From contig JBLGBK010000001.1 in the NCBI GenBank assembly GCA_047617785.1, positions 1 through 64,000 of the forward strand: DNA of 64,000 nt, given 5' to 3'. The notes beneath the pieces were generated by a model. It had not been told where the DNA came from and did not search any database. It worked only from the letters and a program-made list of their open reading frames with translations. Shown piece after piece: positions 4,967-50,565 of this stretch. This stretch comes from Colwellia polaris (GTDB taxonomy: Archaea > Nanohalarchaeota > Nanosalinia > Nanosalinales > Nanosalinaceae). The position numbers and the translations under genes were made by a program. Every line of letters begins with the position of its first letter. Position 1 is the stretch's first letter.

Positions 4967-5039
4967 CTTTCTCACCCTCTTCTTTCTATTCTTAGAAAAT
5001 TGAGAATCCATAAAAGACTGGGACTTGATATTCAGTTTT

Positions 5040-9473: not shown

Positions 9474-9526
9474 AGATATAACTACTAAAGATTGTCTTCA
9501 TCCATTAATTCTTGAAAAGCTGAAAT

Positions 9527-9609: not shown

Positions 9610-9628
9610 CTAAAACCATCTTCCGACT

Positions 9629-10423: not shown

Positions 10424-10487
10424 TCCTTGAAGCGAAACCGAATCTACGCGGGAACCGTTTTTGAATCTTGAAACCTATTTGAGTGTT

Positions 10488-12432: not shown

Positions 12433-12536
12433 TTAGCCTAAATTCTCATATACCACCTTCAAACTTTTGCGGATAGATGACAAAGACAAGGATGAGGGCG
12501 ACCGTAAATAATTATTTTTGAAAGAAAAATTGCGAG

Positions 12537-12610
12537 TGGCCGAACCCGGATTTGAACCGGGGACAACTTGATCTTCAGTCAAGCGCTCTCCCAGGCTGAG
12601 CTATTCGGCC
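12537..12610 (-). tRNA. tRNA-Phe (GAA)
   Basis: Reverse complement GGCCGAATAGCTCAG...CTTGA-CTGAAGA-TCAAG...GGTTCAAATCC...TTCGGCCA. Confidence 0.96.
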
Positions 12611-12702
12611 TTTGTATAACCATTCTTTGAAAGGTGAGTTTTAAGAAATAAAACCATCATTTCTGCAGAACCATAAAAAATTTGCTTAACAACCATTTTT
12701 CT

Positions 12703-13713: not shown

Positions 13714-13869
13714 TTTAGATGATTTACCGAAGAATCCTGTAAGACAGGGCCGATTGAAGAGAGGAGCTTATGCATATTATGCCAGAGCCTCTCAACACAT
13801 AAGTATAGATATTAGCAACTCTGATATCGAGATATGCTGGCAAAAACCATTGTAAAGAAGTTAAGCATC

Positions 13870-14373
13870 TCACTCTCCGTAATATTCGCTAACAGCAGCA
13901 GCTAGTTTGGCGTTATGAGAGTCATCTACCGGCTTTCCACTATCTATTTTCTGCATCATCTCAATGGTTTCCGCAAATATTGTTACAGGATTATTAATTG
14001 CTTCTTCGGGCTCATTACTGTAGTAGTGTCTTATTCTATCCGCATTAAGCAGTTCCTCTCGGTTATGGTCTTTTCCAAGATATTCTAGATATTTTTTAAA
14101 GTTTTCTGGCTTGGCCCATTTATCATGACTTGATAGAAAGGTCTTAATCTCTGTTTGGAAGGCTTGAGAATCTAACTTAGCTTTATATCCTTCGCCCTCA
14201 TGTTTCATTATTCTTACTTGTGTTAACCTCTCCAATTCTGCTTTGACTGTTGGACTCAGAACTTTTTCTGGCTCCTTCATATTCCAGTTTTCAGCTACTT
14301 CTTCCTGTGTCTTCGGATAGACGAATGATGAAATGTATACCAAGTTCGCCCAATTACCTTCTCTAAACTCCAC
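13870..14373 (-). CDS. Hypothetical protein (possible winged-helix N-terminus)
   Basis: 167-aa ORF with no recognised family. Confidence 0.55.
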   Translation of the reverse strand: MEFREGNWANLVYISSFVYPKTQEEVAENWNMKEPEKVLSPTVKAELERLTQVRIMKHEGEGYKAKLDSQAFQTEIKTFLSSHDKWAKPENFKKYLEYLGKDHNREELLNADRIRHYYSNEPEEAINNPVTIFAETIEMMQKIDSGKPVDDSHNAKLAAAVSEYYGE

Positions 14374-27986: not shown

Positions 27987-29393
27987 TTAATCAGTAACGT
28001 TAGTACCTCTTGTTTCGCGGAGCTCTTTCAAAATAAGCTGCATCATTTCGCTGTGCTCCTGGTAACCTTCACGGAGTTCATCAATCTGTTCCTGTTGTTC
28101 CTCGATTTCATCTAGTAAAGCTTTAACGTCATGTTCATCAATTCCTTCGGATTCGTTGCTCCGATCTATGACGTCAGCTAGATTTTCGTTTAGTGTTTCA
28201 ATTTCTGAAGACATTCTGTCGACAAATTCCGATACATCTGTGTTTTGCTCAGTTTCTTCGTCCTTTCTGCCCCGGAGTTCTTGGTATTCGTCTTCAGATA
28301 GCAGTTTGAGCTGTGCAAGATCGTCGAAGTCGTTGAATATCCATTTGAAGTCTGATACCATGTCTTTCAGGGCTTTGACCTGCTTCTCGAGCTTCGATAC
28401 ATCTCTTTCTTCTTCCTGTTTCTCTAGTTCCTCTACCTTGTTCTGAAGATTCTCTACGTCGATAAGCAAGTCGTCGAATTTGCGTGCTTCGACTTCTTCT
28501 AAGCGTTCAACTATTTCGTTGTTCTGTTCTTCAAGCTCTTCGTGACGCTTTTTGATAGATTCAACTTCTTCAAGACCTTCTTCAAATTCGTTGTTCTGCG
28601 TTTCAAGTTCGTCTTGTCTTTGTCGAACATTATCTACTGTTTCTTTCAGATCTTCAACCTCACCTAGATGTTTCTCTAGTTCGTCAAGTCGTTCTTCATC
28701 GACTTCGGATTCTATGTCTTTGAGATCACTGTCTATATCGTCTCTTAGACCTTCAATTTCGGCGTTTAACTCTTCTTTAATACTGTTGGTTTGCTCCTGT
28801 ATATCTTCTACATGAGCGGTTAACTGCGCTTCATCTACTGATTCTTTATCCTCAAGTTCGTTGATCTGGCTTTCCAGTTCTTCTCTCTGCTGGTCGGTTT
28901 TCTTCTTTAGATCTTTGATAAGACTTGTCTTTTCTGCTAGAGTATCTTTAATTTTTTCAAGTTGTTTCGGATCTACGTTGGAACCTTGATCTTCATTTTC
29001 AAGTTCTTTCAGTCTTTTTTCAAGTCGTTCAACTTTATCTGATTGATCCGTGTTTTCGGATTCTTCGATCTTGTGTTCAAGCTCATCTACGCGTTCCTGT
29101 AGTTCTTCATAGTCTTCTCGGGGAACAACGTCTTCATAATTAGATTGTTCAGGCTCGGCGCCTCCTTCTTCATCTATTTCTTCAGAGGTATCGCTTTCTT
29201 CAACTTCTTCTGTGTCTTCTTCAGTTTGGTCTAGAAGGTTTTCTGAGTCTTCTTTAGAAGCATCTTTTTCTTCTTCAGATTCTGTTTCCTGCTGCAATGA
29301 CTGATTTACTGTTGTCTGTTCTTCTTGTTCCTCTTCAACAGTGTTTTCCTCTTCTTCTGTGTCGTCGCTTCCGAAAATTACGTTTTCAGCCAT
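27987..29393 (-). CDS. Long acidic coiled-coil protein
   Basis: Disordered acidic N-terminus followed by continuous heptad repeats. No ATPase motifs. Confidence 0.75.
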   Translation of the reverse strand: MAENVIFGSDDTEEEENTVEEEQEEQTTVNQSLQQETESEEEKDASKEDSENLLDQTEEDTEEVEESDTSEEIDEEGGAEPEQSNYEDVVPREDYEELQERVDELEHKIEESENTDQSDKVERLEKRLKELENEDQGSNVDPKQLEKIKDTLAEKTSLIKDLKKKTDQQREELESQINELEDKESVDEAQLTAHVEDIQEQTNSIKEELNAEIEGLRDDIDSDLKDIESEVDEERLDELEKHLGEVEDLKETVDNVRQRQDELETQNNEFEEGLEEVESIKKRHEELEEQNNEIVERLEEVEARKFDDLLIDVENLQNKVEELEKQEEERDVSKLEKQVKALKDMVSDFKWIFNDFDDLAQLKLLSEDEYQELRGRKDEETEQNTDVSEFVDRMSSEIETLNENLADVIDRSNESEGIDEHDVKALLDEIEEQQEQIDELREGYQEHSEMMQLILKELRETRGTNVTD

Positions 29394-29469
29394 TACAGTG
29401 TTCGCCTCTTGCAAGAAAATTATCCGTTAAGAGTTAAAAGTGTTTATTTACTTAACCGCAACAACACGT

Positions 29470-29916
29470 TTAGCGTTCGCTTAACTCTGTTTTCAGAACC
29501 TCTGAAAGAGAAGCCATATCCGAAGTTAACTCGCCAACAGTTTCCTCAAGCTCTTCCAAGCGCCGGTTTACTTCCGGAGCAGTATTCTGGTTAACCTTGT
29601 CAGCAACAGATTCAACATCGTTTTCCAGCTCCTCAAGCCTGTTCTCAAAGTCTTCAACACCATTTCGACTTTCAAATTCCCTTTCAAGTGCTTCTAATCG
29701 GTTGCTCATAGCCTCTTGGTGAAGAGTTTCATTATGATAGTTAATCTCCAATTCTTCGATCCGTTGCTCAAGTTCTGCGACTCTTTCCTGAACCTGAGAC
29801 TCCTTATCCACAATCATCTCTTCCAAGTTCTGTAGCGTCTCGTTTGTAGATTCCTGAGGCTCATCATGCTCATCAATATGCTGCTTCACTTCCTGTATAT
29901 TGTCAGAGATACCCAT
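29470..29916 (-). CDS. Coiled-coil protein with RLEELE-type repeats
   Basis: Likely start is MGISDN. Repeats RVAELE, RIEELE, RLEALE and RLEELE. Confidence 0.75.
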   Translation of the reverse strand: MGISDNIQEVKQHIDEHDEPQESTNETLQNLEEMIVDKESQVQERVAELEQRIEELEINYHNETLHQEAMSNRLEALEREFESRNGVEDFENRLEELENDVESVADKVNQNTAPEVNRRLEELEETVGELTSDMASLSEVLKTELSER

Positions 29917-29979
29917 TGCTGTATCTTGTGTTTGGTGATGCGTTGTTAATAAATCCTCCAGAACCACAATAAAGTAAAC

Positions 29980-31419
29980 ATGGAGAAAACTCTTCTGGTA
30001 GTCATCGACGGATTCGGAGTAAGAGAAGAAATACAGGGAAACGCAGCAAAGCAAGCAGACACACCAAACCTCGACAGACTCAAGCAACAATACAACTACG
30101 CCGAATTAGACGCATCCGGACCTGCCGTAGGATTACCTGAAGGATTCACAGGCAACTCAGAGGTTGGTCACCTACACCTAGGAGCGGGTCGAACAATACC
30201 ACAGCGACTCACCAGAATAAACAAAGCAATCGAAAATAACAAACTTCGTGAGAAAGAAGCACTGAAAAATGCGTTCCAGAGAGCGGAGGAAAAAGAAGTA
30301 CCAATCCATCTCGCCGGAATTATCAGCGACGGAGGAATCCACGGCCACATAGACCACCTGAAAGCCCTTCTCGAGATATCCACAGAATACGATGTAGAAG
30401 TAAATATTCACTGTTTCACAGATGGAAGAGATGTGTCCCCAAAGTCAGCGGAGAATTTCCTAGATCAGATTAAAGAATGGACAGAGGATTATGGCGGTGA
30501 TATTGCCACAGTTATGGGTAGATACTATAGTATGGACCGCGACCATAACTGGGATCGAACATACAAAGCTTATCAGGCAATGGCGGAGGCAGAAGGTTTT
30601 GAATTCAAAGACCCCTATGAAGCGCTTAACGAGACGTATAAAGAAGATGATTATGACTATTTCATACAGCCCTCAGTAAGCGAAAACTACTCTGGTATGG
30701 AAAATAATCATGAAATTGTTTTCTATAACTTTCGTGCCGATCGTGAAAGACAAATTGAAGAGGAACTGGTTGCCGATGTTAATCCTGACGAATATGAAGA
30801 ACCAGTTCATCCGAATTTTACTTCTATGTTCCGTTACGAGCATGAAATAGATAATCCTGTAATATTTGAGAAGAAGATAGTAGAAAATACATTAGGAGAA
30901 GAATTAGAAGAAAGAGGTTACTCGCAGCTACGTGTTGCAGAAAGCCAGAAAAGACCGCATGTCACATTCTTCTTTAATGGGCAGAGAGAGTTGAAATTCG
31001 AACACGAAGAACGTCACTTCGTCGAATCTGACAAGATTAAAGCTTACGACCAAAAACCAGAGATGCACGCAGACGACATCACAAACGTAGTGCTAGAAGC
31101 AATGGAAAAAGGTAAAAAGGATTTTATACTACTTAATTTTGCTAACTGTGATCTCGTTGGACACACAGGAGATCTTGAAGCAACCATAACCGCTGCAGAG
31201 ACCGTTGATAAGAATATTGGCAGACTAGCTGACAAGTTAGAAGATACAGATTACAATTTCATTATAACTTCTGATCATGGGAACTGCGAGGATATGGGAA
31301 CAGAAGATAGCCCTAACACTTCTCATACTACGAACCCGATACCAGTCATTTCAGATCACGAATTCAAGTTTGAAGAAAAAGAGATATGGGAGATTAGAAA
31401 ACTGGTAGGGACGAACTAA
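29980..31419 (+). CDS. gpmI: 2,3-bisphosphoglycerate-independent phosphoglycerate mutase
   Basis: DGFG, GNSEVGH, DGRD, NFRADR, DLVGHTG and SDHGN motifs. Confidence 0.97.
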   Translation: MEKTLLVVIDGFGVREEIQGNAAKQADTPNLDRLKQQYNYAELDASGPAVGLPEGFTGNSEVGHLHLGAGRTIPQRLTRINKAIENNKLREKEALKNAFQRAEEKEVPIHLAGIISDGGIHGHIDHLKALLEISTEYDVEVNIHCFTDGRDVSPKSAENFLDQIKEWTEDYGGDIATVMGRYYSMDRDHNWDRTYKAYQAMAEAEGFEFKDPYEALNETYKEDDYDYFIQPSVSENYSGMENNHEIVFYNFRADRERQIEEELVADVNPDEYEEPVHPNFTSMFRYEHEIDNPVIFEKKIVENTLGEELEERGYSQLRVAESQKRPHVTFFFNGQRELKFEHEERHFVESDKIKAYDQKPEMHADDITNVVLEAMEKGKKDFILLNFANCDLVGHTGDLEATITAAETVDKNIGRLADKLEDTDYNFIITSDHGNCEDMGTEDSPNTSHTTNPIPVISDHEFKFEEKEIWEIRKLVGTN

Positions 31420-31655: not shown

Positions 31656-31937
31656 CTAACAGGCAAGTGTTCCTTCGTCCTCTCCAAGATTTACTCCCTG
31701 TGGAAGTTCGGAACTTGAAATGTCGCTTGGACAGTTTGCAGGCACAGAAATAGTTTCGCCAGATCCTGCGACACTACACTGCGATCGTATAGCTGTGTCA
31801 CATGCGCTGTCGCTGACATCACTAGTACCTCCTCCTATTCCCTGATTAAAGGCGAATATAAGAGTTAGTGCTGCCATCATTAATACTGAGGCTGCAATGA
31901 TAAGGAATAGTATTTGAGATAAACCTTTTCTAGCCAT
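31656..31937 (-). CDS. Type IV pilin-like protein
   Basis: Class III signal MARKG|LSQILFLIIA and four Cys. Confidence 0.85.
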   Translation of the reverse strand: MARKGLSQILFLIIAASVLMMAALTLIFAFNQGIGGGTSDVSDSACDTAIRSQCSVAGSGETISVPANCPSDISSSELPQGVNLGEDEGTLAC

Positions 31938-32382: not shown

Positions 32383-33609
32383 TTAGTTGGATTCAGCATC
32401 ATTCTGAAATTCTTGGAAATAGCTATCTACGCGAAAACTTAATCTCTTCCAGCCTTCTTCAGTAACCACTCTATTTGCTTTGTCAACCATTTCTATAGTA
32501 GCTGTAGAATTAGTAGGTTCTATCTTGACTTCGATATCGTATTCATCATCTAAGCAGTGAGTTTCATCAGCGTCGTCACCATCGTGATCATGATCACCAT
32601 GACAATTACAGTTACCTACCTCCTCCTGGCTGTAGTACGCAGAACCATCATAATTCGTGCTATATTCTCCGTAATCTAAATCCAGCGTATAATCTCCAAG
32701 ACTAAAGTTGCCTTCGATCAATGAATCTCCAGGTATCCAGGGTATATCTACTCCTTCACCTACGCCTGAATAGAAACTGGAGGTTACGTTGGAATCTACA
32801 TCATTTACTGTTTCAGACTCCAGAGAAGACCAATCATCATCGTCTGGCGAGCAAACGTTTTCCTCAGTGTTGGTAACACTTCCAACTGTTCTCCACTCTC
32901 TCTGAATATCTTTGTAGGCCCTAATAGTCTGGTTAGCCATTATAATATAGCGATTTGCTCTAACCTGCTCTGTTGTAGCAAAACCTATACCTCCTGTATC
33001 AACGTATCGAGTGGAACCTGCAGTAAAATCGCATTCCACTTCTAAGGGTGCAGCTTCCGGAACCGGGAAACCAAACCCGCCTTCTGGAACCTGATAGTCT
33101 ATCTCAGACCCTATCTCCACAGGAATACTGTTTCTATTATCCTGCATCGCCTCAAATAAGTCGAATTTATCAGGATAAACGTCAGCGGTATATTGTATAT
33201 CCGGTATTTGACAAGTCTGGCTTCTTGAAGTTTGACCATATCGGTTGTTGAAGTATTGTGTAGTTCCTTCCTCTAAATCAGCTACAATACGATACAATTG
33301 AGAAGTATGGGATTTGTCAGCTGAAAAGGCGTCATAGTGCCATTCTATCTCCTCTCCACCACCTTCTTGTCCTAGTTCGTATGATTTCTGATTTAGAGAA
33401 TGATAAGCCCCCATAGGAACATAATTATAGAAATACATATCTGCATATGACTTGGTTTCAGAGACTCTGCTCACGTCAGTAAGGGTGTTAGAAAGTTCAG
33501 TACTAAATATTTCTGTTATGGGAAGTGAATTCATAGCCATTATTGCAGAAATAAGGAGAAGCACTATAAACGGTATTAATTCCTCACCGCTCATTGAACC
33601 TTTTTTCAT
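32383..33609 (-). CDS. Large minor pilin-like protein
   Basis: MKKG|SMSGEELIPFIVLLLI leader and a 408-aa acidic body with a His/Asp loop. Confidence 0.75.
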   Translation of the reverse strand: MKKGSMSGEELIPFIVLLLISAIMAMNSLPITEIFSTELSNTLTDVSRVSETKSYADMYFYNYVPMGAYHSLNQKSYELGQEGGGEEIEWHYDAFSADKSHTSQLYRIVADLEEGTTQYFNNRYGQTSRSQTCQIPDIQYTADVYPDKFDLFEAMQDNRNSIPVEIGSEIDYQVPEGGFGFPVPEAAPLEVECDFTAGSTRYVDTGGIGFATTEQVRANRYIIMANQTIRAYKDIQREWRTVGSVTNTEENVCSPDDDDWSSLESETVNDVDSNVTSSFYSGVGEGVDIPWIPGDSLIEGNFSLGDYTLDLDYGEYSTNYDGSAYYSQEEVGNCNCHGDHDHDGDDADETHCLDDEYDIEVKIEPTNSTATIEMVDKANRVVTEEGWKRLSFRVDSYFQEFQNDAESN

Positions 33610-34217
33610 TACGATGAGACACCTACATCATAAATGTTCTGCGAGGTTTGTGTCCATAAAGTTATCTCTGCAACTTCTCCTTCTGCAATACTCAAGGGAT
33701 AGGTAACCCGGGAAAAAGATCCTGGTTGATAATCCTCCGGCGCTCTCACTACTAGCGGTTCAATATCTTTATCTGCTGGACCCTGTATCTCAAGATAGTA
33801 ACCGATAGTATTAGGTCCTTTTCTCCAGTATTGATCCATCTTATATTCCAAGTAGGTTTCTATATCTTCTCTTACCTCTTCGCGAGATACTTCTACTGTG
33901 CCCGATCCCGAGGCGTCAGATATGTATATCTCATCTTCCTCACTTGAGAAGTACAAAGAGATAACTTCATAAGCTGTATAGTTGCCGTAAGTTTCTCCGA
34001 CCTCTCCTGAACGCCACATGTAATCGTTCATAGTTGTCGTTACGACCGATCTTTTTCGAAGTTCCGCTAATTGATAGCCTACATCCTCATCCACTTGGGT
34101 TTCAACAACGTTGTCTCCAGGTACAGTCATGATTAGATAGACAAAGATCGAAATCATTACAGCAGACATGAAGAGTATTGTTGAGACGAGTAATCCTTGT
34201 GCTTTCCTAGATTTCAT
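33609..34217 (-). CDS. Pilin-like protein
   Basis: MKSRKA|QGLLVSTILF class III signal. Confidence 0.8.
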   Translation of the reverse strand: MKSRKAQGLLVSTILFMSAVMISIFVYLIMTVPGDNVVETQVDEDVGYQLAELRKRSVVTTTMNDYMWRSGEVGETYGNYTAYEVISLYFSSEEDEIYISDASGSGTVEVSREEVREDIETYLEYKMDQYWRKGPNTIGYYLEIQGPADKDIEPLVVRAPEDYQPGSFSRVTYPLSIAEGEVAEITLWTQTSQNIYDVGVSS

Positions 34218-34722
34218 AGACATACAACCTCGCAGGTAGTAGAGGGTTGCCTCTAGCCTCACGTACTAAGAGAACAGGGCTGAATACAGCTTGATCTCGG
34301 TATTGTGTTTTTTCTTCATCGCAGTTCAGCTCCCTAACGTTAGTGGCTTTTTGGGCAGGGTCTTCAAGAGGCGAGATATAGAACCCGAATTCTTCGCCGT
34401 CCAGAGCTTCAACTCTCGGCAAATAGCAATGGCCATTATTCTTCTTGTATCCAATATCATCTTCGCTTTCTGCCTGCCTAGTAAAATATTCTACAGGCAG
34501 CATCGCTCTTCTTCTGTTATAGTTGTAATCAAGAGTATAATCAGAGCTTAAAGAAAGAGTATTCTCCATTATAGCTGATCTCTTAAAGTCTCCCTGATTA
34601 TAGCTATCAATATTTACAGAAACACTATTTAAACCGCCTAGATACATTTGAAGAACTATGGCTAAGCCTGTAAGGAGCATTATTGCCAAAACTATTGCTT
34701 CAGGAGCATCATAGGAAATCAT
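34207..34722 (-). CDS. Pilin-like protein lacking a basic leader
   Basis: MISYDAPEAIVLAIMLL N-terminal helix, in the pilin operon. Confidence 0.7.
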   Translation of the reverse strand: MISYDAPEAIVLAIMLLTGLAIVLQMYLGGLNSVSVNIDSYNQGDFKRSAIMENTLSLSSDYTLDYNYNRRRAMLPVEYFTRQAESEDDIGYKKNNGHCYLPRVEALDGEEFGFYISPLEDPAQKATNVRELNCDEEKTQYRDQAVFSPVLLVREARGNPLLPARLYVYEI

Positions 34723-34724: not shown

Positions 34725-35120
34725 CTAACAGGGCTCCGATTTAATATCAAGCACTGAAGACTCTTTACTCAGACACAAAACCGATTCCACTTCAGTATAT
34801 TCATTTTCACCGTTAACCTCTGTAACGTCAAGATTTTCCAGCGGAACGCTGCCCTCTTCGTCTTGATACTTTACAAATATTTCTCCATTTTCATATTTAT
34901 AGCTAAACCCGCTCATTTCTATCTCTATATGACCCTTTGGCACTGAATTTAGAACAAAAGCAGCATTAGCTATTCTTTCAGTGCGTAAATCCACCGTTTG
35001 CTCCTTAACATAATCGCTGGTATAAGTTTGAACACCATAGGCTATAGCAAAAAGGAACAGGGCTATAAACACCATCGCCAGTATAAACACAGGCTTATCA
35101 GACTGAGCCTTTCTAGTCAT
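34725..35120 (-). CDS. Pilin-like protein
   Basis: MTRKA|QSDKPVFILAMVF class III signal. Confidence 0.8.
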   Translation of the reverse strand: MTRKAQSDKPVFILAMVFIALFLFAIAYGVQTYTSDYVKEQTVDLRTERIANAAFVLNSVPKGHIEIEMSGFSYKYENGEIFVKYQDEEGSVPLENLDVTEVNGENEYTEVESVLCLSKESSVLDIKSEPC

Positions 35121-35577
35121 CAGCACGCATGAACACCGTCGCTTGATTATTTTCTACTTCACCTGTGATAGTTATTACCCATTTGCCCGAACCTATAGAG
35201 GTATCACCAGTCCTAGTATTTTCAAAAACATAATCGCAAGAACCCGAAAGCTCTGCTGAACCACTACTATTATCAGTCTGCCAGTTAAATTCGTCATTAG
35301 AAGGATCAAATGTCAATGTATCGATCTGTGTAAGCTCAATATCTTCATCCGTAGAAGTTGAAACAGTTGACCGGCTTTCAGAAGCCACATCCGAGCATTT
35401 ATTCTCAGCACTAGGTATCAAATTATCCTCAATAGCCGCCACATCTTCATAATACGCAGTTTGACCTCCTATTCCTGCGACAAAACTATTCAATACACCC
35501 ATACTTAATAGAGAAATGAACAAACCTATCACCACAAATACTACTGCCGCAGGACCAAAACCTTTTCTATACTGCAT
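35113..35577 (-). CDS. Pilin-like protein
   Basis: MQYRKG|FGPAAVVFVVI class III signal. Confidence 0.8.
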   Translation of the reverse strand: MQYRKGFGPAAVVFVVIGLFISLLSMGVLNSFVAGIGGQTAYYEDVAAIEDNLIPSAENKCSDVASESRSTVSTSTDEDIELTQIDTLTFDPSNDEFNWQTDNSSGSAELSGSCDYVFENTRTGDTSIGSGKWVITITGEVENNQATVFMRADD

Positions 35578-35794
35578 ACTCTTCATAACTCTCTGCATCA
35601 TATCCTATATCGCATGCTTGATCAGGATTTTCTGGGTTTTGAAAAAAGCAATCATAACCCTGATTTAATTCAGAGCCCGTGCCATCTATATCTTCTCCAG
35701 CATCGCCAATTACCGAACTAACAAGACCAACAACTAGAGCTATTACTGTGAGACCAAGAACAAAAAGTAAAACAGTATATATAGATATCCTCAT
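35567..35794 (-). CDS. Small pilin-like protein with minimal leader
   Basis: MRISIYTVLLFVLGL helix and a C-terminal Cys pair. Confidence 0.65.
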   Translation of the reverse strand: MRISIYTVLLFVLGLTVIALVVGLVSSVIGDAGEDIDGTGSELNQGYDCFFQNPENPDQACDIGYDAESYEEYAV

Positions 35795-35953
35795 CTAAAA
35801 AACACCTGTAGAGATATTTATTTGATCGGAACCGAAGGATTCAGCTCCAGAAAATCCATTTGAGACCAAAGATAGAATAACTGCTACCGTAGCAAGACCA
35901 ATTAACATTACCACCAAAGTTGTCATACTAAAATTGAAGCCCGGTCTTGACAT
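35795..35953 (-). CDS. 52-aa Flp-size pilin-like protein (not in ORF track)
   Basis: MSRPG|FNFSMTTLVVMLIGLATVAVILSLV. Its stop abuts the next ATG. Confidence 0.75.
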   Translation of the reverse strand: MSRPGFNFSMTTLVVMLIGLATVAVILSLVSNGFSGAESFGSDQINISTGVF

Positions 35954-35988
35954 AGTAAACAATTATCTAAACCCAAACATAAGCGTTG

Positions 35989-36144
35989 TCATACGTCAGG
36001 AAATACTATAGAGTCAACAAATCCTGAAGCCAGCTCAGTAAACCACCCATTAAAAGCAGCGTAAACAGCTGCAATAATCAGTAGTACTAAAACTATTTTA
36101 GACATCGTTGATACAGACATGTTCTGTGCTTTTCTTGCATTCAT
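35989..36144 (-). CDS. 51-aa Flp-size pilin-like protein (not in ORF track)
   Basis: MNARKA|QNMSVSTMSKIVLVLLIIAAVY. Confidence 0.8.
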   Translation of the reverse strand: MNARKAQNMSVSTMSKIVLVLLIIAAVYAAFNGWFTELASGFVDSIVFPDV

Positions 36145-36151
36145 AACCAAA

Positions 36152-38341
36152 TCACGTTTCCAACTCTATATCTCTCACTTGAACTATAGGTTTTTCTAGG
36201 CCCGGATAATGGGCTGGCGTCCAGGTCTCAAATACTAGCCTAGTAAAGTCTCTATTGGTCTCCATGGTCTTTGTCAATTCCTGACCCCCTCCCTGAATAT
36301 TCCATACAATCTCACCAGAATTCTTAGTCAATGTTACAGTATATATCTCATCCCTCTCGTAAGTCATATCTGTTTCACTATAATCTTGGTTTTCGTAAGA
36401 GCTTCCATAACTAGAACCTGACTCACTTTCGAAGTACCATATAGGAGGTTCGCCCTGCGCATGCGTATTAATGTAAGTAACCGTTTCTCTTCCAGGTCCT
36501 TTCTGCGCATCTATTTGAAAATGCCCTCTCTCTTCAAACTCAAGTTCCATTGTAATAGTCTTTGAACCTTCTGGTATTTCACCATCCCAAGTTACATAGG
36601 CTTCTTGATCTACATTCTGCGGATTAAACCGGAAACCTATTCCAGAATCATCAATTAGACCATTTTCGCTGCTTGGATTTGGAAAAGCCGAGTCATACTC
36701 ATCAGTTATATCCCTCTTTGGATCGTAAGTCGAAGACCAGCTGTTACTTCCCGAATCACAACTGTAGGTATAGCCATTAATGCGAGTCTGTGTTTCTGCA
36801 TCCTCCGTACATGGATACCACATAGCATTAAACTGGCCAGACGGGTTAGCGCATAGCAGATCACCGTACATCTCATTGTCTATACTGCCATCCCGATATG
36901 AGACGAGTAGAGGAGAAGCCGACTCAATATTAGATCCGTCAAGATAGATATTGTTATAGAACTCTCTATTCTCCTCATTAAGATTTTCAGTGTATATATC
37001 CGTCGAATACAACGGCGGTAATTCGCCTTGAGCATTTATTGTTGCGCCTTTTTTGAACCTAACAGTACCAGCAGGATTCCCTATCTTCACATCACAAGAA
37101 CTCGCCATATTACCTTCAAGTTTTGCTCCCTGGAGGTCAAATACGCGATAGTTAGATGCAGTTCCCGTTATCCTCAAATCTTGGCCCGGCGCAGCTGATG
37201 ACGGCACAACGCCATTAAAGTCGATATTACCGTCTTCACAAGAGCCTTTACTGGTTATCTCTATATAAGGGAATCTTTTAGCCAGAATTAAATTTTCTCC
37301 AGCCTCGCCATCATTTGTTGGAGACTGCTTATTAGTCTGTATATAACCCTTATCGCCCGGACATAAAACGACATAACTCTCCATACTCCTTCTTGCCGTG
37401 TTCAAAGCAGAAGCATCAATATATATAGCGTCAGATTCTAGCGATTCACCGGTACGGTCAGTCCAACTACTGCAATATATACTATCTGAGAAATCGCCTG
37501 GCATGCTACCGGCGCCCTCTAGAAACATAGCTCGAATGTCTCCAACTTGAGGCTGGAAATAGAAAGTAAAAGCATCCCCGGAACCGATATACTCTGCATC
37601 AAAGGATTCAGAACCAGCAAACCATCCAATAGCACCTCCAACAGTGCCTCCAACAGCCCCTCCCACTATAGTACCTCCAATAGGAAGAACAGCCGTTCCA
37701 ACTGCGGCTCCAAGACTTGCCCCTGTATAAAATCCTACTCCGCTGGCAACACTGCCTACTACAGCTCCAGCGTCTCCATCTTCAATATCGGACTGAGTAC
37801 AGCTTTGGGAAATTCGATCTTCAAAACTTCCTCGCGCTGCACCTGCTATCCTGCCTTTTTCAAGCCAAACTTCACCAGCAGATTCATCAAGTATTATAGG
37901 TTCTTCAGAAGTTACTTCAAAATTTACTTTAGAATATTTGCCTTCCATATCGTTTCCGCTCTCTCCTGGTTTTATCTCTTCCCCAGGACGCGCCCACGTT
38001 TCGGAAGCTCCTTGACACTCCGGAGTTTGACCTAGATAAGTATGGGCTAGACCGGGATACCCTCCATCTTGGTTTTGCTGCTGTACGTTTTCACAACTCA
38101 CAGCTCTTTGATAAGAGAACTTAGCAGCATCTGATATAACCTCTTTAGCACTTGCCTGTTCCGTTTCTTCAACATCTACAGTGTAATCTACATTTCCTTC
38201 AATTAGGTTAAAACCTTCTTTTATAGAGCTTCCTAGACCTCCGCTTACAACCGTTGTAGAAACTACAGACAAAGTTAATAGGCCTAGAAGGATACCTCCA
38301 ACCATTCTAATACCTGCTCCTTTCTTTTTTTGCGTTAACAT
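36152..38341 (-). CDS. Giant pilin-like adhesin with an internal glycine-zipper hairpin
   Basis: MLTQKKKG|AGIRMVGGILLGLL leader, many Cys, a GxxxG zipper, and a beta-rich C-terminal domain. 729 aa. Confidence 0.75.
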   Translation of the reverse strand: MLTQKKKGAGIRMVGGILLGLLTLSVVSTTVVSGGLGSSIKEGFNLIEGNVDYTVDVEETEQASAKEVISDAAKFSYQRAVSCENVQQQNQDGGYPGLAHTYLGQTPECQGASETWARPGEEIKPGESGNDMEGKYSKVNFEVTSEEPIILDESAGEVWLEKGRIAGAARGSFEDRISQSCTQSDIEDGDAGAVVGSVASGVGFYTGASLGAAVGTAVLPIGGTIVGGAVGGTVGGAIGWFAGSESFDAEYIGSGDAFTFYFQPQVGDIRAMFLEGAGSMPGDFSDSIYCSSWTDRTGESLESDAIYIDASALNTARRSMESYVVLCPGDKGYIQTNKQSPTNDGEAGENLILAKRFPYIEITSKGSCEDGNIDFNGVVPSSAAPGQDLRITGTASNYRVFDLQGAKLEGNMASSCDVKIGNPAGTVRFKKGATINAQGELPPLYSTDIYTENLNEENREFYNNIYLDGSNIESASPLLVSYRDGSIDNEMYGDLLCANPSGQFNAMWYPCTEDAETQTRINGYTYSCDSGSNSWSSTYDPKRDITDEYDSAFPNPSSENGLIDDSGIGFRFNPQNVDQEAYVTWDGEIPEGSKTITMELEFEERGHFQIDAQKGPGRETVTYINTHAQGEPPIWYFESESGSSYGSSYENQDYSETDMTYERDEIYTVTLTKNSGEIVWNIQGGGQELTKTMETNRDFTRLVFETWTPAHYPGLEKPIVQVRDIELET

Positions 38342-38523
38342 AATGATAAACTCGTTTGATCCGCCAATGTTGAGAAAAGGCCTTGTAAGATAGTGCAAAT
38401 CCCGTTTATACCTAAGCTTTCAAATATGGGACCTGATAAACCCAGCAACAGAAGACCGACTAAAAGCGCTAGTACTAGTTTAAGCACAGTATCTGTCGGT
38501 AGGCTGCTGGCACCTTTCCTCAT
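38335..38523 (-). CDS. Small pilin-like protein
   Basis: MRKG|ASSLPTDTVLKLVLALLV. Confidence 0.8.
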   Translation of the reverse strand: MRKGASSLPTDTVLKLVLALLVGLLLLGLSGPIFESLGINGICTILQGLFSTLADQTSLSLC

Positions 38524-38566: not shown

Positions 38567-38710
38567 TTAACTGATAGCGCTATCAAGAGCTTGCTGATAT
38601 ATCTGCTCAACAACCCGATCTATGGCAAAAAGAAGAAGAGCGACAAAGGCAATAGCCACGCCGAACTTCACTAATTGATCTAAAGTAAATCCTGAGGAGC
38701 CCTTTCTCAC
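38567..38710 (-). CDS. 47-aa Flp-size pilin-like protein (not in ORF track)
   Basis: GTG start overlaps the platform gene's stop (GTGA). MRKG|SSGFTLDQLVKFGVAIAFVALLLF. Confidence 0.75.
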   Translation of the reverse strand: MRKGSSGFTLDQLVKFGVAIAFVALLLFAIDRVVEQIYQQALDSAIS

Positions 38711-43177: not shown

Positions 43178-43588
43178 ATGCCCGATCAAAACTTGATCAA
43201 TCAGTTAGTCACTCGAGTGAATGATTTTAACCGGCGGATGAGAGATCTTGAGGAGAAAATTCGGAACCTCACTGCACGTGTCAATACTCTAGATGACACA
43301 ATCATGAATAAGACGAAGACATTAAACACCGACTTGCAGGAGTTTGAAGACGATCTAAGCGAGGTCAGAGACCGTATAGCGAACCTAGAGGTTGATGTAA
43401 AAGAGATTAACCGTGAAAAGAGGAAATTTGTCAGTAAACAGGAATTAGAAGAAATGGAGAACTACATGGATCTAATGAACCCTGTAAACTCGAATTTTAC
43501 AACTGAAAAGCAGGTCGAGCAGAAGATAGATGATAAAGCACTCAATAAAGATGAAGTTGAATCTTTAATTGAAAAGAAATTGAATTAA
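43178..43588 (+). CDS. Coiled-coil protein divergent from the ATPase
   Basis: Heptad repeats RMRDLEEKIR and RIANLE. Confidence 0.75.
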   Translation: MPDQNLINQLVTRVNDFNRRMRDLEEKIRNLTARVNTLDDTIMNKTKTLNTDLQEFEDDLSEVRDRIANLEVDVKEINREKRKFVSKQELEEMENYMDLMNPVNSNFTTEKQVEQKIDDKALNKDEVESLIEKKLN

Positions 43589-43647
43589 AAATGAATGATT
43601 TAATAACGGAAGAAACCAAAAATGTTTACCAGAGGTAGCCTTGATAT

Positions 43648-44529
43648 ATGAAGTTTGAACTATTTGGACGCCTAGGAGATAACAACGGCCAGCAAGATCA
43701 AGAGGAAGGCGGAAATAACGGTTTTAATGCCGGATTCGGAGAAGAAGATTTCCAGACCGGTGGAGACTTAGACCGTACAGTTCAAAACATGTTTGATCAA
43801 GGTTATTCTGAAGACGAGATAAAAAGCGAGTTACAGGGACAATATGCCGAAAACGAGATAACTCAGTCGATTAATCGAGTGGTTACCTCATCGGCCACAG
43901 GAAACAACAATAGTAATGATGGACCTGAACCAATGACACCATATCAAGGAGATGAAGGCGCAGTAAGTCCTATGGACGAAGGCTACAGTCAAGACAAAAA
44001 CGAAAATGGAGGCGGCAATGAAATGAATAACATTAACCAGAACACCCAAAATGATAATATGATGCAAGAACAACAAAACCCTCAGCAGCCGCAACAACCC
44101 ACACAGCAAAGCGGTAGGCAGGGCCAAGGTAACTATAATGCGTCAGGAAATGTTGATCCTGCTGTAGAGGAGTTAATTGAAACAATTATTGCTGAAAACT
44201 TCGAGAAAGTTGAGGCAGAATTCCATAACGTCTACGATGAGCTTGACACGTTTGCAGAAGAGATTGAGGATTTAAAGCAACGTGTTCACGATCTTGAGGT
44301 TCGTGATGACGAAGATCAACAGCAGTTTGTACAGAAAATTGACGAAGTTGAAGAACATATCGATGAATATGAGTCCCGTATCGGCGGGCTGGAAAAAGCT
44401 TTCCAGCAAGTCCTACCGTCGCTAGTCGACAATGTCAGAGAGCTTACTGATCTTGTACAAGAACTGAAAGATGAAGGAGAAGTAAGTGAAGGCGACTTTG
44501 AAGATATGGACGTAGAAGATCTCCAGTAA
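43648..44529 (+). CDS. Protein with small helical domain, Q/N-rich linker and C-terminal coiled coil
   Basis: QGYSEDEIKSELQ helical motif, QQPQQP linker, then EELIETIIAE...RIGGLEKAF. Confidence 0.75.
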   Translation: MKFELFGRLGDNNGQQDQEEGGNNGFNAGFGEEDFQTGGDLDRTVQNMFDQGYSEDEIKSELQGQYAENEITQSINRVVTSSATGNNNSNDGPEPMTPYQGDEGAVSPMDEGYSQDKNENGGGNEMNNINQNTQNDNMMQEQQNPQQPQQPTQQSGRQGQGNYNASGNVDPAVEELIETIIAENFEKVEAEFHNVYDELDTFAEEIEDLKQRVHDLEVRDDEDQQQFVQKIDEVEEHIDEYESRIGGLEKAFQQVLPSLVDNVRELTDLVQELKDEGEVSEGDFEDMDVEDLQ

Positions 44530-47247: not shown

Positions 47248-48816
47248 TTATGAACCAAGAACTTCATCAACAGCATCAATCCCCTCATCTAATTTTTTCA
47301 GAATCTCTTCATCATCCTCAATCTTATGCTCTTCGGTCATTAACATGCCTTTAAGAATATTTACAGTATCATCTTTCACCGAATCAATACTATCTCGCAA
47401 ATTAGCTGAAGTAGTCAAGCCACCTACCTCGCTTGCAACCTCACTGCATATATCATCTATAAGATCGTCAACACTATCAGAGTTATTCTGAAGCATATCC
47501 ACCATATTTTGTATATCGCTAGGGTTCTCTATTGCCAACTCATGCTTAACTCTTCTCTTAGCTTCTTCCAAATTGTCCTTTATATCTTGTAGCTCGGATT
47601 TATCCTTCTGTAGGTGATTTTCCAAGTACTCTATGTGCTTATTCATAGTTCTGTGATGATCGAATAATTTACGATCCTCCACTTCCCTAGCAGCCTCTTT
47701 TATAACTTTTTCTTTGTCTTCTGCCTCCTCAACCTCTTTTAAAAGCTTCTTTAAGGCTTTTACAGACCTAACAATCTCTTTAGTATCAGCTATAAGACTA
47801 TTGAGCTCATCATCAAGCACAGCAACATCATGCTCATCCTTAGACTGTATTCTATCAGCAGCCGATCTTATTTCAGTTATATCGTGTAAAGCAGCTTTTA
47901 AACCGAAATTTTTGTACTTATCAGGTAAGTCTTTGCTTCCTAAGTCGGAGTTGCTATTCTGAAATAGATTCTGTCCATTAATCACATCGCCCTCAGTATA
48001 ACCAGAGCCCGTATTCGCTTTGTTGTAAAGTAGTTCTAGAGCATTTCGAAAGTTATTGATTCTTGCACCAACCTGTCTGTAACTGGCTGAACTGCCTCGC
48101 CCCGGATTATTTACCGCGTCTATAATAGCATTGATATCTGAATTAATATCTTGCTCAGACTGATGAATTGCCGGTTCGATATGACTGTAAGCACTTTCAA
48201 TATCGTCTACTGCCTCCTCCAAGTCTACTGCGTTTTTAGAGGCGTTACCCCCGTTACCGTTCCCGCCACCTCCTATATTATTTAGCTCTTGTCTTGCATC
48301 CTTTATCTCCTGTAGGCCCTGATTCAATGCTTTACCCGTCTTCCCAGTTGTCCAAGCCACTCCTGCTGCACCCCCTCCGAGAACAGAAATAAGAAGTGCT
48401 ATCACCCCAAAAACCAGGGCTACTACAAGAATCTGTTGGATATCCCAGATCAGTCCTAAAGGCTCTATCCAGTGGCCGGCCCCCATCATAGATATTATTA
48501 GGAGCAGTGATAGGACCGCAAGCAAGTTTCTTTTATTTTCAGCTTGACCTATGCCTCCAGATTCTAGATTGAACAGTTGTTGAAGATCAAACTTGACTAC
48601 TAGCTTCTTTAGAATCATGTAAACTGATACCCACAGAAGACCAAAAGTAGCTGCTATGCCGATATTATGCATTAAACTACCTGACTTAAGACCTACAAAA
48701 GAAATAATACCCTCAAATGAAGATAATGAAGTCTCTTGACCATGTGAAGCAGCGGTAAAAGACACCAAAAAATATGTCAGACCCGCAATTAAGGCAGATT
48801 TTAGTTTAGTTCTCAT
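47248..48816 (-). CDS. Signal peptide + 3-TM module + long helical/coiled-coil domain
   Basis: Likely start is MRTKLKS, with TAA-SHG. The N-terminal half is paralogous to 49828-50565. Confidence 0.75.
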   Translation of the reverse strand: MRTKLKSALIAGLTYFLVSFTAASHGQETSLSSFEGIISFVGLKSGSLMHNIGIAATFGLLWVSVYMILKKLVVKFDLQQLFNLESGGIGQAENKRNLLAVLSLLLIISMMGAGHWIEPLGLIWDIQQILVVALVFGVIALLISVLGGGAAGVAWTTGKTGKALNQGLQEIKDARQELNNIGGGGNGNGGNASKNAVDLEEAVDDIESAYSHIEPAIHQSEQDINSDINAIIDAVNNPGRGSSASYRQVGARINNFRNALELLYNKANTGSGYTEGDVINGQNLFQNSNSDLGSKDLPDKYKNFGLKAALHDITEIRSAADRIQSKDEHDVAVLDDELNSLIADTKEIVRSVKALKKLLKEVEEAEDKEKVIKEAAREVEDRKLFDHHRTMNKHIEYLENHLQKDKSELQDIKDNLEEAKRRVKHELAIENPSDIQNMVDMLQNNSDSVDDLIDDICSEVASEVGGLTTSANLRDSIDSVKDDTVNILKGMLMTEEHKIEDDEEILKKLDEGIDAVDEVLGS

Positions 48817-48826
48817 AAATCTATCT

Positions 48827-49819
48827 TCAATTATTTTGTGCTGATTGAGATACCTTTTGCCACATTTCAGATAATTTGTTAATAGCCTCTTGCTCGCCCT
48901 GCTCTTCAAGAGTCTTAAACTTGATCATTTTCTCTAGTTGTTGATTTATAGATTTCATACCTTCTTCTAAAGTTTCTAACTCACCTACAATCTCTTCAGC
49001 TTCCTGGGATCGGTCAGTCTTACTTGCTCTTCCAGGTCCATCTGTTGATGTCTGTACACGTTCTTTTACAAGAGGTTCAAGCCGCTGTTTTATCTCTTTG
49101 AAAAGTTTCTTATCTTCAGTAAGATCTTCCTTCAGCTCTTGTATTTCCTCTTTATTCAACTGTGCTTCGTCATTTATAGCCGAGTCTACCTCTTGGAGTT
49201 CCTGAGCAAGTCTTTGCGCCTTATTGTCCATATTGCTGTAGTGCTCTTCTGCAGTACTCTCAGCACCATCTGCTTCTCTAAGTAGTCCAAGAACATCATC
49301 ATAACCTTCTTGCTGGGCTATAGTTCTCAGACCCTCCTCGATATTCCTTATCTTGTGAAGCTGATTCCTAAGTTGTGCCATAGACTGAAAAGTAGCATTA
49401 AGTTCAATTACGTCTTCAATAGCCTCCTCTACTTCAATCTCAACATCATACTGCTCCTCTTGAAAATTATCTTGAAAATCACTAAGAGCATTTGCAGCAT
49501 CACGTACTCTTTCAAGTTGGTCATGGAGATAGTTGAGGAGCTCATCTTGAGATCTGGATTGCGATTCTTTCTTTATGTCTTTGTTTATCGCTACAAAATC
49601 CTTATGTATCTCTTTAAGATCTCTTAACTCTTTATTTTCATCCTGCATAACTTGCTTGGCTGCTTGTTTTATTTCTTCAAGCCGTTCGATATCTTCTGTT
49701 ATCTCTTTTTCAATAAATTCTTCCATTTCTATATCTTTTTCCAAAGCTTGTTCTAATGATTCTGCCGCCTCATAAAGCTGCTGATGGATTTTCTCTCTAT
49801 TGGGATTATCTTCTGACAT
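48827..49819 (-). CDS. Soluble coiled-coil protein
   Basis: All-helical and heptad-rich. AGGTG SD lies before ATG 49819. Confidence 0.75.
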   Translation of the reverse strand: MSEDNPNREKIHQQLYEAAESLEQALEKDIEMEEFIEKEITEDIERLEEIKQAAKQVMQDENKELRDLKEIHKDFVAINKDIKKESQSRSQDELLNYLHDQLERVRDAANALSDFQDNFQEEQYDVEIEVEEAIEDVIELNATFQSMAQLRNQLHKIRNIEEGLRTIAQQEGYDDVLGLLREADGAESTAEEHYSNMDNKAQRLAQELQEVDSAINDEAQLNKEEIQELKEDLTEDKKLFKEIKQRLEPLVKERVQTSTDGPGRASKTDRSQEAEEIVGELETLEEGMKSINQQLEKMIKFKTLEEQGEQEAINKLSEMWQKVSQSAQNN

Positions 49820-49827: not shown

Positions 49828-50565
49828 CTAAAGACTGTTTGAACAACCACTGCCATTACACGTTTTAGCACTCTGTGGATTTAATTTATAACAATTTGAA
49901 CACACTTTAAAGCCTAAGCTATTAGCTGCGCTCGCATATTTATTGCCTGCTTGATTTACATATTTATTGGCACCAAAAACGCTTTTTGCACTACTAGCAT
50001 ATTTTTTAGCTCCGTTGACTCCACGCTTAGCAGCACTAGATACTCCTGCTTTGTCTAGACCATCTTTAGCTTTTCCTCCGCCCCATGCAAGAGCCTTTCC
50101 GGAGGCACCCACGGAGGCTAAAACTCCTGCGCTACCGCCTCCGACGACAGCTATAACAAGTGCAACTATTCCAAACACTAGTGCTAGTAAGAGAACCTGT
50201 TGAATAGTCAGTAGGACGTTGAAGTATGTATGTGCGCCCGTCATCATGACTATCACAATTAAGAGAGATAGTATTGCCCCAAGGTTTCTACTACTTCCTC
50301 CACTGCTTCCTATTGTGCTGCTACTTCCGCCCATGTTGAACAGGCTTTGCAAGCCAAACTTGTTTACCAGCTTCTTTATAATTAGATAAACTGCGAACCA
50401 CATCAGACCGAAAGCTGAGGCAGACGCTACTAGTTGACGCCAATTTTCAGTAGGGAGCGGTATCTGTGTGAGAAGACCGAATAGACCTCCTGATTCGCCA
50501 TGAGATGCAGTTGCTATAGAAGTGAAGGAGATAAGAAGAGAGGTTAAAATGGTTTTTTTGTTCAT
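49828..50565 (-). CDS. Signal peptide + 3-TM module + basic tail with zinc ribbon
   Basis: ATA-SHG and a C-terminal CSNC...CNGSGC zinc ribbon. Confidence 0.75.
   Translation of the reverse strand: MNKKTILTSLLISFTSIATASHGESGGLFGLLTQIPLPTENWRQLVASASAFGLMWFAVYLIIKKLVNKFGLQSLFNMGGSSSTIGSSGGSSRNLGAILSLLIVIVMMTGAHTYFNVLLTIQQVLLLALVFGIVALVIAVVGGGSAGVLASVGASGKALAWGGGKAKDGLDKAGVSSAAKRGVNGAKKYASSAKSVFGANKYVNQAGNKYASAANSLGFKVCSNCYKLNPQSAKTCNGSGCSNSL

Follow-up and report, generated by a model that had tools for sequence, protein, structure and literature searches.

A glycine-zipper hairpin resembling those of phage tape-measure proteins in a pilin-like protein of a nanohaloarchaeal type IV pilus operon

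INTRODUCTION

Why should a pilin-like protein of an archaeon carry, in the middle of its extracellular part, a long uncharged glycine zipper of a kind that phage tail proteins carry? The question is raised by a 64,000-nucleotide stretch of DNA (positions 1 to 64,000 of contig JBLGBK010000001.1 in assembly GCA_047617785.1, listed as Colwellia polaris and placed by GTDB in the Nanohalarchaeota; hereafter the window), in which a gene for a 729-residue protein, P0001, lies within a type IV pilus operon. A preliminary description had proposed that P0001 is a pilus-tip subunit whose zipper inserts into the membrane of a host cell as an anchor or pore. Such a function would matter because the proteins behind the 'cytoplasmic bridges' and the invasion of hosts by DPANN archaea are not identified in the accessible text of Hamm et al. 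(bioRxiv 10.1101/2023.02.24.529834), and the locus offers a concrete candidate for the way in which a DPANN archaeon may engage the membrane of its host. Here and below, papers are cited for the parts of their text that were accessible.

RESULTS AND DISCUSSION

P0001 carries an exceptional glycine zipper

The zipper comprises residues 192–243 of P0001, that is, 52 residues with 33% Gly, 17% Ala and 17% Val, without any D, E, K, R, H, N or Q, and with 11 GxxxG steps and a single proline (P220). The first arm bears the ladder G203-G207-G211-G215, which is followed by the turn LP220IGG and by the ladder G227-G231-G235-G239-G243 of the second arm. The peptide previously described as about 50 uncharged residues with serial GxxxG and a central proline is therefore real, although the positions then given for it (37612..37770) were 1–2 nt off and out of frame (for the exact limits, see Table 1). 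In 2000 shuffles of the whole protein, neither its longest uncharged run (54 residues; shuffle mean 22, maximum 46) nor its number of GxxxG motifs in a 52-residue window (11; shuffle mean 3, maximum 7) was reached once. Among the 3763 six-frame open reading frames (ORFs) of at least 60 amino acids (aa) in the 787-kb genome, this was the sole true glycine zipper, besides which there was one GSGT low-complexity frame.

The two arms (approximately residues 192–218 and 224–243) are 20–27 residues each, which is long enough for crossing a bilayer. Their Kyte–Doolittle hydropathy (KD) is 0.9–1.3 and their Gly content 26–45%, compared with KD values of 2.08–2.89 for the ten N-terminal helices of the operon and 1.43–2.43 for the helices of its platform protein, and the top 19-residue window of the zipper (1.67) straddles the proline turn. 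As a pair of standard membrane anchors, the zipper was rejected on the comparison of its arms with the N-terminal helices of the operon (0.9–1.3 versus 2.1–2.9). The turn (LPIGG) lacks Lys and Arg, and both flanks are acidic. To judge from the residues, this charge pattern appears unlike that of a hairpin set by the translocon with a cytoplasmic loop, and like that of hairpins whose tip has to cross a bilayer starting from the outer side.

These values bear on the possibility that the hairpin is an anchor in the producer's own membrane, as two spans or a re-entrant wedge, so that P0001 would be a three-anchor surface or basal component such as a cell-bound adhesin or an assembly primer. The topology is allowed, since an out-in-out hairpin leaves both flanking domains outside; the arms suffice for a bilayer span, the best window (1.67) is comparable to the weakest platform helices (1.43–1.54), and the two-transmembrane glycine-zipper lipoproteins SlyB and YfgH reside in the membrane of the cell that makes them (bioRxiv 10.64898/2025.12.22.696046). 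However, the hydropathy maximum lies across the proline turn while the glycine-rich arms alone remain at 0.9–1.3, the would-be cytoplasmic turn carries no positive charge, most orthologs lack the insert yet keep the same N-terminal anchor, and the 30–36-residue inserts of relatives cannot span a membrane twice. We consider an anchor of this kind unlikely.

The zipper interrupts a conserved domain in a modular, pilin-like protein

The ORF of P0001 encodes 729 aa from an ATG, or 748 aa from an upstream TTG. Its N-terminus reads MLTQKKKG followed by AGIRMVGGILLGLLTLSVV; here a short basic leader with [KR][GA] at its end runs into a hydrophobic helix (KD 2.08), and a K-G-[hydrophobic] start is common to most of its relatives. 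A class III-like signal (KKKG/AG) is thus present, as had been proposed. The body is acidic, as had also been stated (111 D+E versus 49 K+R). To call it 'disulfide-rich' was an overstatement, as the 729 residues include 10 Cys, and four of these (C83, C109, C327 and C368) are conserved in at least 90% of 109 relatives; C181 and C290 are also widely kept.

Structures were predicted by AlphaFold2 (AF2) for the full protein (109-row alignment; mean predicted local distance difference test [pLDDT] score 65.6) and for residues 1–375 (91 rows; pLDDT 77.1, predicted template modelling score 0.74). In these models a helix at residues 10–33, continuing at 35–50, leads into an alpha/beta domain (N-domain) that is folded with confidence from residues 50–190 and 250–370 (pLDDT mostly >90). 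The N-domain matched no solved fold with VIA-align (Z ≤4.3, helix only) or Foldseek (E >0.8), and residues 40–375 found no usable match in the ESM Atlas, where structure rows had TM <0.3; this is a failure of a predicted domain to match solved folds, and no claim of a new fold is made. The C-terminal domain, in contrast, is recognizable in the predicted model (pLDDT 80–95; Foldseek match with E 6.9e-6). It aligned with 5mqs_A, a module of the sialidase BT_1020, over 160 residues (VIA-align Z 13.0, rmsd 3.4 Å), and residues 533–729 gave Z 11–12 to PL7 alginate lyases and legume lectins and about 10 to galectins. By its model, this domain has a ConA-like lectin/glucanase fold, and its glycan binding is putative. 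Among sub-threshold Pfam rows of the relatives, a CofB beta-repeat (E 0.082) and a Sialidase-like carbohydrate-binding module (E 0.18) may serve as leads only. P0001 is very probably a modular minor pilin or adhesin, this being the descriptive part of our best explanation.

In both AF2 models, the zipper had a pLDDT of 30–46 and no secondary structure, and it was likewise unstructured with ESMFold. On the strength of the low scores in two models, it lies outside the predicted fold and is not buried in it, burial having been one of the outcomes that the preliminary description had considered. The ends of the insert should nevertheless sit close together, hairpin-like, since the modelled halves of the N-domain meet around its base. 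From what is established for halophilic proteins, an exposed segment of 50 uncharged residues on an acidic ectodomain in saturated brine should tend strongly to become buried, be it in lipid, in partner proteins or among its own copies. Prediction of an oligomer from four copies of residues 183–252 scored 0.03 (mark 0.42), with a partner pLDDT <50, a result that tells neither for nor against self-association.

The zipper is of the phage tape-measure type

A search of 1.84 billion representative sequences with P0001 gave 115 matches at E ≤0.001, of which about 105 were true relatives and ten matched the zipper only. In Pfam, these ten zipper-only proteins included one TMP_3 tape-measure protein, one eCIS-core (extracellular contractile injection system) protein and one LRAT/NlpC protein; two passed the cut-off of Gly-zipper_Omp and a third fell just below it. 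According to PHROGs, seven of the ten, with the TMP_3 and eCIS-core proteins among them, match tail tape-measure or tail-associated lysin families, and residues 183–249 of P0001 themselves matched phrog_14486 (E 3.4e-5), phrog_794 (tail length tape measure protein; E 4.5e-4) and phrog_3405 (E 9.6e-4). The similarity depends on the order of residues: in local alignments, each of the ten scored better than 500 of 500 composition-preserving shuffles (z 7.1–14.6). Eleven columns were invariant, namely G203, G207, A208, G211, G215, P220, G227, G231, G235, G239 and G243.

A profile built from the module alignment found one significant chain among solved structures, 9ki1_g ('Probable tape measure protein'; residues 586–639 of 690, E 9.9e-7). 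The zipper alone reached only TIM22 (E 5.8) in the same structures and did not reach 9ki1_g at E ≤10, and no SlyB chain was listed for the zipper in either the single-sequence or the profile search. Two non-significant kinds of profile row (E 0.16–0.8) paired the 'GAAIG..IP..G' turn with filovirus GP2 fusion-loop peptides and the 'GAVVGGLGG' arm with a prion glycine-zipper segment. P0001 scored 49.9 bits against the ten-module profile (module core 201–246), a score that is circular, since P0001 had itself served as the query by which these modules were collected. Searches of the zipper by tblastn against 50,697 phage records gave no match, probably owing to low-complexity masking, and none of the 162 matches from a pattern scan of IMG/VR was confirmed by tblastn.

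Taken as a sequence, the zipper is a module of 46–52 residues of a helix-Pro-helix type, and of the same sequence type as the Gly-rich hairpin of tape-measure proteins. The kinship with membrane-entering proteins that had been proposed for it holds in part: its nearest sequence relatives are tape-measure proteins, tail lysins and an eCIS-core protein, while the likeness to Cdz-type bacteriocins and VacA is one of motif only. P0001 had no Bacteriocin_IIc match in Pfam at E ≤1 and, with 729 aa, is not a small peptide.

A phage tape-measure protein precedes the phage DNA through the host envelope. The hairpins of the phage tape-measure proteins and tail lysins (PHROG 794, 14486, 1047 and 23574; 9ki1_g) have in common with that of P0001 the pattern G-x3-GA-x2-G-x3-G-x4-P-x6-G-(x3-G)x4 over about 46 residues without internal charge, and a carrier protein that is exported or ejected and does not stay in the producer's membrane. 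They differ in that P0001 has neither a tape-measure domain nor a long helical ruler (no tape-measure family was matched outside the zipper in Pfam or PHROGs), in that its module is internal to a globular pilin head and not near the C-terminus, and in that its flanks are acidic instead of Lys-rich. The function of the phage module is itself disputed in the accessible sources (PMC5099701, PMC12617516).

Glycine-rich inserts recur at one hypervariable loop

Within the phylum, 25 of 70 genomes contained relatives of P0001, as did 23 of the 49 genomes in the window's family group, absence here meaning that none was found with a single-protein query. The relatives include P0007, which NCBI lists as a hypothetical protein from Candidatus Nanohalococcus occultus (phylum Nanohalarchaeota), and a near-identical frame occurs in a genome of the same family group as that of the window. 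Across 109 relatives aligned with MAFFT, the site of the zipper, between the conserved Cys181 and the strand 'GSG..F.F...R', contains from 0 to about 70 extra residues. Any uncharged run of 28 residues or more in which Gly and Ala together made up at least 35% was counted as an insert, and 102 rows were scored in this way, 7 of the 109 being excluded for poor coverage of the N-domain. Inserts were present in 14 of these 102 family representatives and in 4 of 20 species-level loci. On a tree of the N-domain from which the insert columns had been removed (quick IQ-TREE search, SH-aLRT support only), the trait required nine changes, at least five of them forced by well-supported branches, and was clustered beyond chance (1 of 500 shuffles was as low). 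Gly-rich hydrophobic inserts thus recur at one hypervariable loop of the N-domain. In a complete related genome (locus L022, G040:C1), two divergent copies of the large subunit lie in tandem within one operon (9523–10503 and 12318–14057), the second with a 32-residue Gly-rich insert.

Within the lineage of P0001, the zipper is well preserved. In P0002, a homologue with 67% identity, 38 of the 52 zipper residues are identical (73%), and both Gly ladders and the proline are kept. We also aligned contigs of four public runs to the gene; among 17 runs listed, none was an RNA run containing it. In an 8.7-kb contig carrying a 99.4% variant, there were 13 differences, and all four in the zipper were synonymous, compared with four of the nine outside it. 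A more divergent contig had 84% DNA identity over 37550–37702 (arm 2), one of few segments with at least 80%; it showed 25 differences there, and of the 13 listed, ten were synonymous and three conservative (G236A, V234A and T233A). Although the numbers are small, these comparisons of sequences point to purifying selection on the zipper in the P0001 lineage. Outside the zipper, four of the five non-synonymous differences of the close variant (R663T, E656G, S647N and Q629E) fell within residues 629–663 (window 36354–36458), in a lectin loop modelled with low confidence that may be a specificity loop under diversifying change.

It could be argued from this distribution that the zipper is a tolerated low-complexity loop, the hypervariable site between C181 and GSG..F.F having drifted to Gly/Ala filler, with a likeness to phage proteins that is a convergence of composition and periodicity. 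The range of insert lengths, the gain or loss of Gly/Ala-rich inserts on at least five occasions, the failure of the phage-type profile to recognize most inserts and the low pLDDT of the zipper are all compatible with such drift. Drift does not sit well, however, with four synonymous differences out of four in the close variant, with a zipper more conserved than the protein as a whole and both ladders kept in P0002, with an order-specific similarity to ten unrelated proteins that includes an invariant proline among eleven invariant columns, or with an uncharged run that is extreme for an acidic protein. We regard it as decidedly improbable.

A hairpin that may insert conditionally into a target membrane

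The explanation that we put forward, tentatively and at somewhat less than an even chance, is that the zipper is a conditionally inserting hairpin for a target membrane, carried on a lectin-bearing minor pilin. Its high Gly content and weak hydrophobicity would keep the hairpin from halting in the producer's translocon; it would hence be exported together with the ectodomain and remain flexible or masked on the pilin head. The lectin domain would first bind glycans on a host haloarchaeon; the hairpin would then partition into the host membrane, where several copies would probably zip together through their Gly faces. The outcome would be a membrane foothold for the pilus and possibly a local breach. 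The bulk of P0001 suggests, by analogy, a position at the tip.

Precedents for such behaviour exist. The glycine zipper of Tde1, a type VI secretion effector, is required for membrane permeabilization and translocation and resembles the C-termini of tape-measure proteins (PMC10240207), glycine-zipper LXG toxins damage membranes (PMC12955049), and gpH* of phage lambda makes a channel across the envelope (PMC12617516). The type of the hairpin thus suggests, and does not prove, that the pilus engages a host membrane.

Several points weigh against this explanation. First, the insert is missing from 88 of 102 representatives and from 16 of 20 species loci, from which it follows that it is dispensable for the pilus and is not a core mechanism of the family; of the refutations foreseen in the preliminary description, absence from orthologs therefore applies in part. 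Second, the phage-type profile recognizes only six family members at E <0.01 (P0001, P0002, P0091, P0084, P0093 and P0004), and its matches are partly circular, as noted above. The other Gly/Ala-rich inserts, of 30–43 residues, are not recognizably the same module, and some are too short for two spans. Third, the best Pfam match of the zipper, Gly-zipper_Omp (PF13488; residues 203–239), remained at 15.6 bits (E 0.016) under a cut-off of 25 bits. Fourth, neither AF2 nor ESMFold gives helices in the zipper, and both its placement in a membrane and the formation of pores are putative. Finally, known modules do not all act on a target: the second hydrophobic region of the TP901-1 tape-measure protein is dispensable for infection, chaperone binding having been proposed for such regions instead (PMC5099701), and SlyB and YfgH remain, as mentioned, in the producer's membrane.

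The TP901-1 result leads to a further alternative, in which the zipper is a protein–protein element whose Gly faces pack on helices of neighbouring minor pilins, on its own copies or on a chaperone-like partner, and which stabilizes or caps a tip complex without lipid. GxxxG ladders are classic surfaces of helix–helix packing (Kim et al. 2005, as cited in PMC10240207 and PMC12955049), the hydrophobic regions of tape-measure proteins have been associated with the binding of chaperones in place of membrane insertion (PMC5099701), and no fewer than nine other products of the operon have exposed hydrophobic helices. On the other hand, no partner was identified, most orthologs lack the insert and yet assemble within this conserved operon, and a contact of this kind would usually be expected to co-vary with its partner. 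This alternative, too, seems to us rather unlikely.

Returning to the inserting hairpin, a bolder form of it can be imagined, which we think improbable: a phage-derived hairpin would arm the DPANN pilus such that, after docking by the lectin, several copies of the zipper on the tip adhesin insert into the host membrane, anchor the symbiont and locally breach or fuse the bilayer, as a first step to the cytoplasmic bridges or the invasion observed between DPANN archaea and their hosts. If this were true, the patchy and repeatedly gained loop inserts would be lineage-specific weapons tuned to different hosts.

Comparison with known systems

In its layout, P0001 parallels modular minor pilins such as PilC of Streptococcus sanguinis, in which a class 3 signal and a pilin moiety are combined with a ConA-like lectin module and which has been modelled at the pilus tip (PMC9934059). 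Both have a class III signal, a pilin-type helix and a bulky ConA-like module and are encoded in a pilus operon. P0001 differs in being archaeal, in having an N-domain of about 300 residues without a solved match and in its glycine-zipper insert, and the two are likened by layout and not by sequence.

With the glycine-zipper clan of Pfam (PF13488; SlyB, YfgH), P0001 has in common two arms with GxxxG ladders around a turn. It differs from the clan in scoring below the cut-off, which also holds for the best of 16 scanned relatives (P0084, 19.2 bits), in lacking a lipobox and in belonging to an organism without an outer membrane. The glycine-zipper effectors (Tde1, Tse4, LXG-T2, TelE, CdzC/D and VacA) likewise carry serial GxxxG motifs in an uncharged segment of a protein that is delivered to another cell, and permeabilization of the target membrane has been demonstrated experimentally for Tde1 (PMC10240207) and LXG-T2 (PMC12955049). 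Here the likeness is confined to the motif, no sequence match to these families having been obtained; neither a toxin domain nor an immunity gene was seen for P0001, and delivery would be by way of the pilus.

The ingredients of the system, namely modular lectin pilins, glycine-zipper modules and DPANN pilus loci, are already known. In the literature on glycine zippers and pilins outside subscription journals, as far as its text was accessible, we found no description of a tape-measure-type zipper in the head of an archaeal pilin-like adhesin, and a full-text search with the same coverage found no literature on glycine zippers in DPANN archaea. Three results stand even if the membrane explanation fails: the definition of a family with over 100 modular pilin-like members from archaea, whose N-domain is without a solved match, a hotspot loop that repeatedly acquires Gly-rich inserts, and a zipper module with an invariant proline and two Gly ladders that is common to phage tail proteins and an archaeal surface protein.

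P0001 is a fast-evolving member of a conserved pilus operon

The gene of P0001 lies on the same strand directly downstream of those for an assembly ATPase and a membrane platform protein, with ORFs of 47 and 62 aa in between (Table 1). The stop codon of the 62-aa ORF overlaps the start of the P0001 gene, and its product has weak, below-cut-off matches to DUF7554 (E 0.0038) and UpsA (E 0.062). Downstream of the P0001 gene follow seven ORFs of 75–408 aa with N-terminal helices of KD 2.35–2.89, five of them after [KR][KR][GA]. A prepilin peptidase of the Peptidase_A24 family (33.4 bits, over the cut-off) is present in the genome as well, the assembly of which is 787 kb long and 96.6% complete. 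The designation 'pilin-like' given in the preliminary description agrees with this location in a type IV pilus operon and with the presence of the peptidase.

We compared 14–20 kb stretches from eight related genomes and found the same gene order in all eight, consisting of the ATPase, the platform protein, the large subunit and homologues of the 133-, 171-, 217-, 408- and 93-aa proteins. Identities across the eight genomes were 76–79% for the ATPase and 55–66% for the platform protein, and only 24–35% for P0001. As its gene keeps its position at this low identity, P0001 is a fixed but very fast-evolving member of the operon, as would be expected of an exposed subunit that contacts a partner. 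The fastest-evolving subunit of a conserved pilus operon pairs a predicted glycan-binding fold with a phage-type hydrophobic hairpin. The accessible text of Hamm et al. (bioRxiv 10.1101/2023.02.24.529834) describes conserved DPANN pilus loci in Nanohaloarchaeota in which an ATPase and a TadC-like platform lie beside coiled-coil genes, as they do here (43178..44529); a large subunit and a glycine zipper are not mentioned in that text.

Table 1. Features of the pilus locus and of the P0001 gene, in order of descending position (positions are those of the window)
Feature	Position	Strand	Basis
Two coiled-coil protein genes (136 aa, 293 aa), divergent, beside the ATPase	43178..44529	plus	Sub-threshold coiled-coil family matches only
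Type IV filament assembly ATPase (T2SSE/FlaI/TadA superfamily), 754 aa	40880..43144	minus	Pfam T2SSE E 6.3e-17; NCBIfam FlaI E 7.6e-41, below curated cut-off
Polytopic membrane platform protein (T2SSF/TadC-like), 721 aa	38707..40872	minus	Pfam T2SSF E 1.7e-6, over cut-off
47-aa pilin-like ORF (MRKG/SS..., hydrophobic helix)	38567..38710	minus	Sequence only, KD peak 2.35; no homology support
62-aa pilin-like ORF (MRKG/AS...)	38335..38523	minus	tblastn match at the same operon position in 2/8 genomes
P0001 gene, 729-aa modular pilin-like protein	36152..38341 (including stop)	minus	ORF list
P0001: class III-like signal (MLTQKKKG/AG) and hydrophobic N-terminal helix, residues 1–33	38243..38341	minus	KD 2.08; AF2 helix
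P0001: conserved N-domain, first half, residues 40–190 (C83, C109, GND.EG motif, C181)	37772..38224	minus	pLDDT >90 mostly; conserved columns
P0001: glycine-zipper hairpin, residues 192–243	37613..37768	minus	Sequence; profile and PHROG matches
P0001: conserved N-domain, second half, residues 247–372 (GSG..F.F, R270, C290, LCPGDKGY, C327, C368)	37226..37603	minus	Invariant or near-invariant columns; pLDDT mostly >80
P0001: variable middle region, residues 377–557	36671..37213	minus	pLDDT <50; deleted in relatives P0003 and P0004
P0001: predicted C-terminal ConA-like lectin/glucanase beta-sandwich, residues 558–729 (fold match from about 535)	36155..36670	minus	VIA-align, Foldseek
75-aa ORF with N-terminal hydrophobic helix	35567..35794	minus	tblastn match at this position in 1/8 genomes
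162-aa pilin-like ORF (..YRKG/FG..)	35113..35601	minus	tblastn match in 1/8 genomes
133-aa pilin-like ORF (..TRKA/QS..)	34725..35126	minus	Syntenic in 7/8 genomes
171-aa ORF with N-terminal hydrophobic helix	34207..34722	minus	Syntenic in 8/8 genomes
217-aa pilin-like ORF (..SRKA/QG..)	33609..34262	minus	Syntenic in 8/8 genomes
408-aa pilin-like ORF (MKKG/SM..)	32383..33609	minus	Syntenic in 8/8 genomes
93-aa pilin-like ORF (MARKG/LS..), candidate filament subunit	31656..31937	minus	Syntenic in 8/8 genomes, 35–60% identity

Further observations concern the operon and its surroundings. The P0001 gene is followed by a 357-bp gap (35795–36151) that contains a terminator-like hairpin (36072–36056, minus strand, by a bacterial consensus), so that the pilin-like genes beyond it may be transcribed as a unit of their own. 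Promoter and terminator counts in the scan were at the level of shuffled sequences, the consensus being bacterial. Four T2SSE-family ATPases are encoded in the 0.79-Mb genome (C5:21958-22599, C3:56039-56737, C1:41348-41881 and C10:2704-3141), which is a heavy investment in type IV filaments for a genome this small; about 1.6 kb separate the copy on C5 from the gene for the prepilin peptidase. At one of the related loci (L029, G026:C3), the ATPase ortholog was matched in two pieces, 1769–3250 and 4721–5515 (query residues 1–496 and 490–754), which lie about 1.47 kb apart and may reflect an inserted sequence such as an intein.

A few kb downstream of the pilin cluster, two very acidic coiled-coil proteins of 475 and 206 aa are encoded on the minus strand (27987–29414 and 29470–30090), with sub-threshold family matches only. 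Elsewhere in the window, the minus-strand ORFs 47248–48909 and 49828–50565 (553 and 245 aa) have similar N-terminal parts of about 180 residues, which open with a signal-like start and contain two hydrophobic segments as well as a 'GGGAAGV/GGGSAGV' stretch, whereas their tails are unrelated; their sequences look like those of paralogous membrane or surface proteins.

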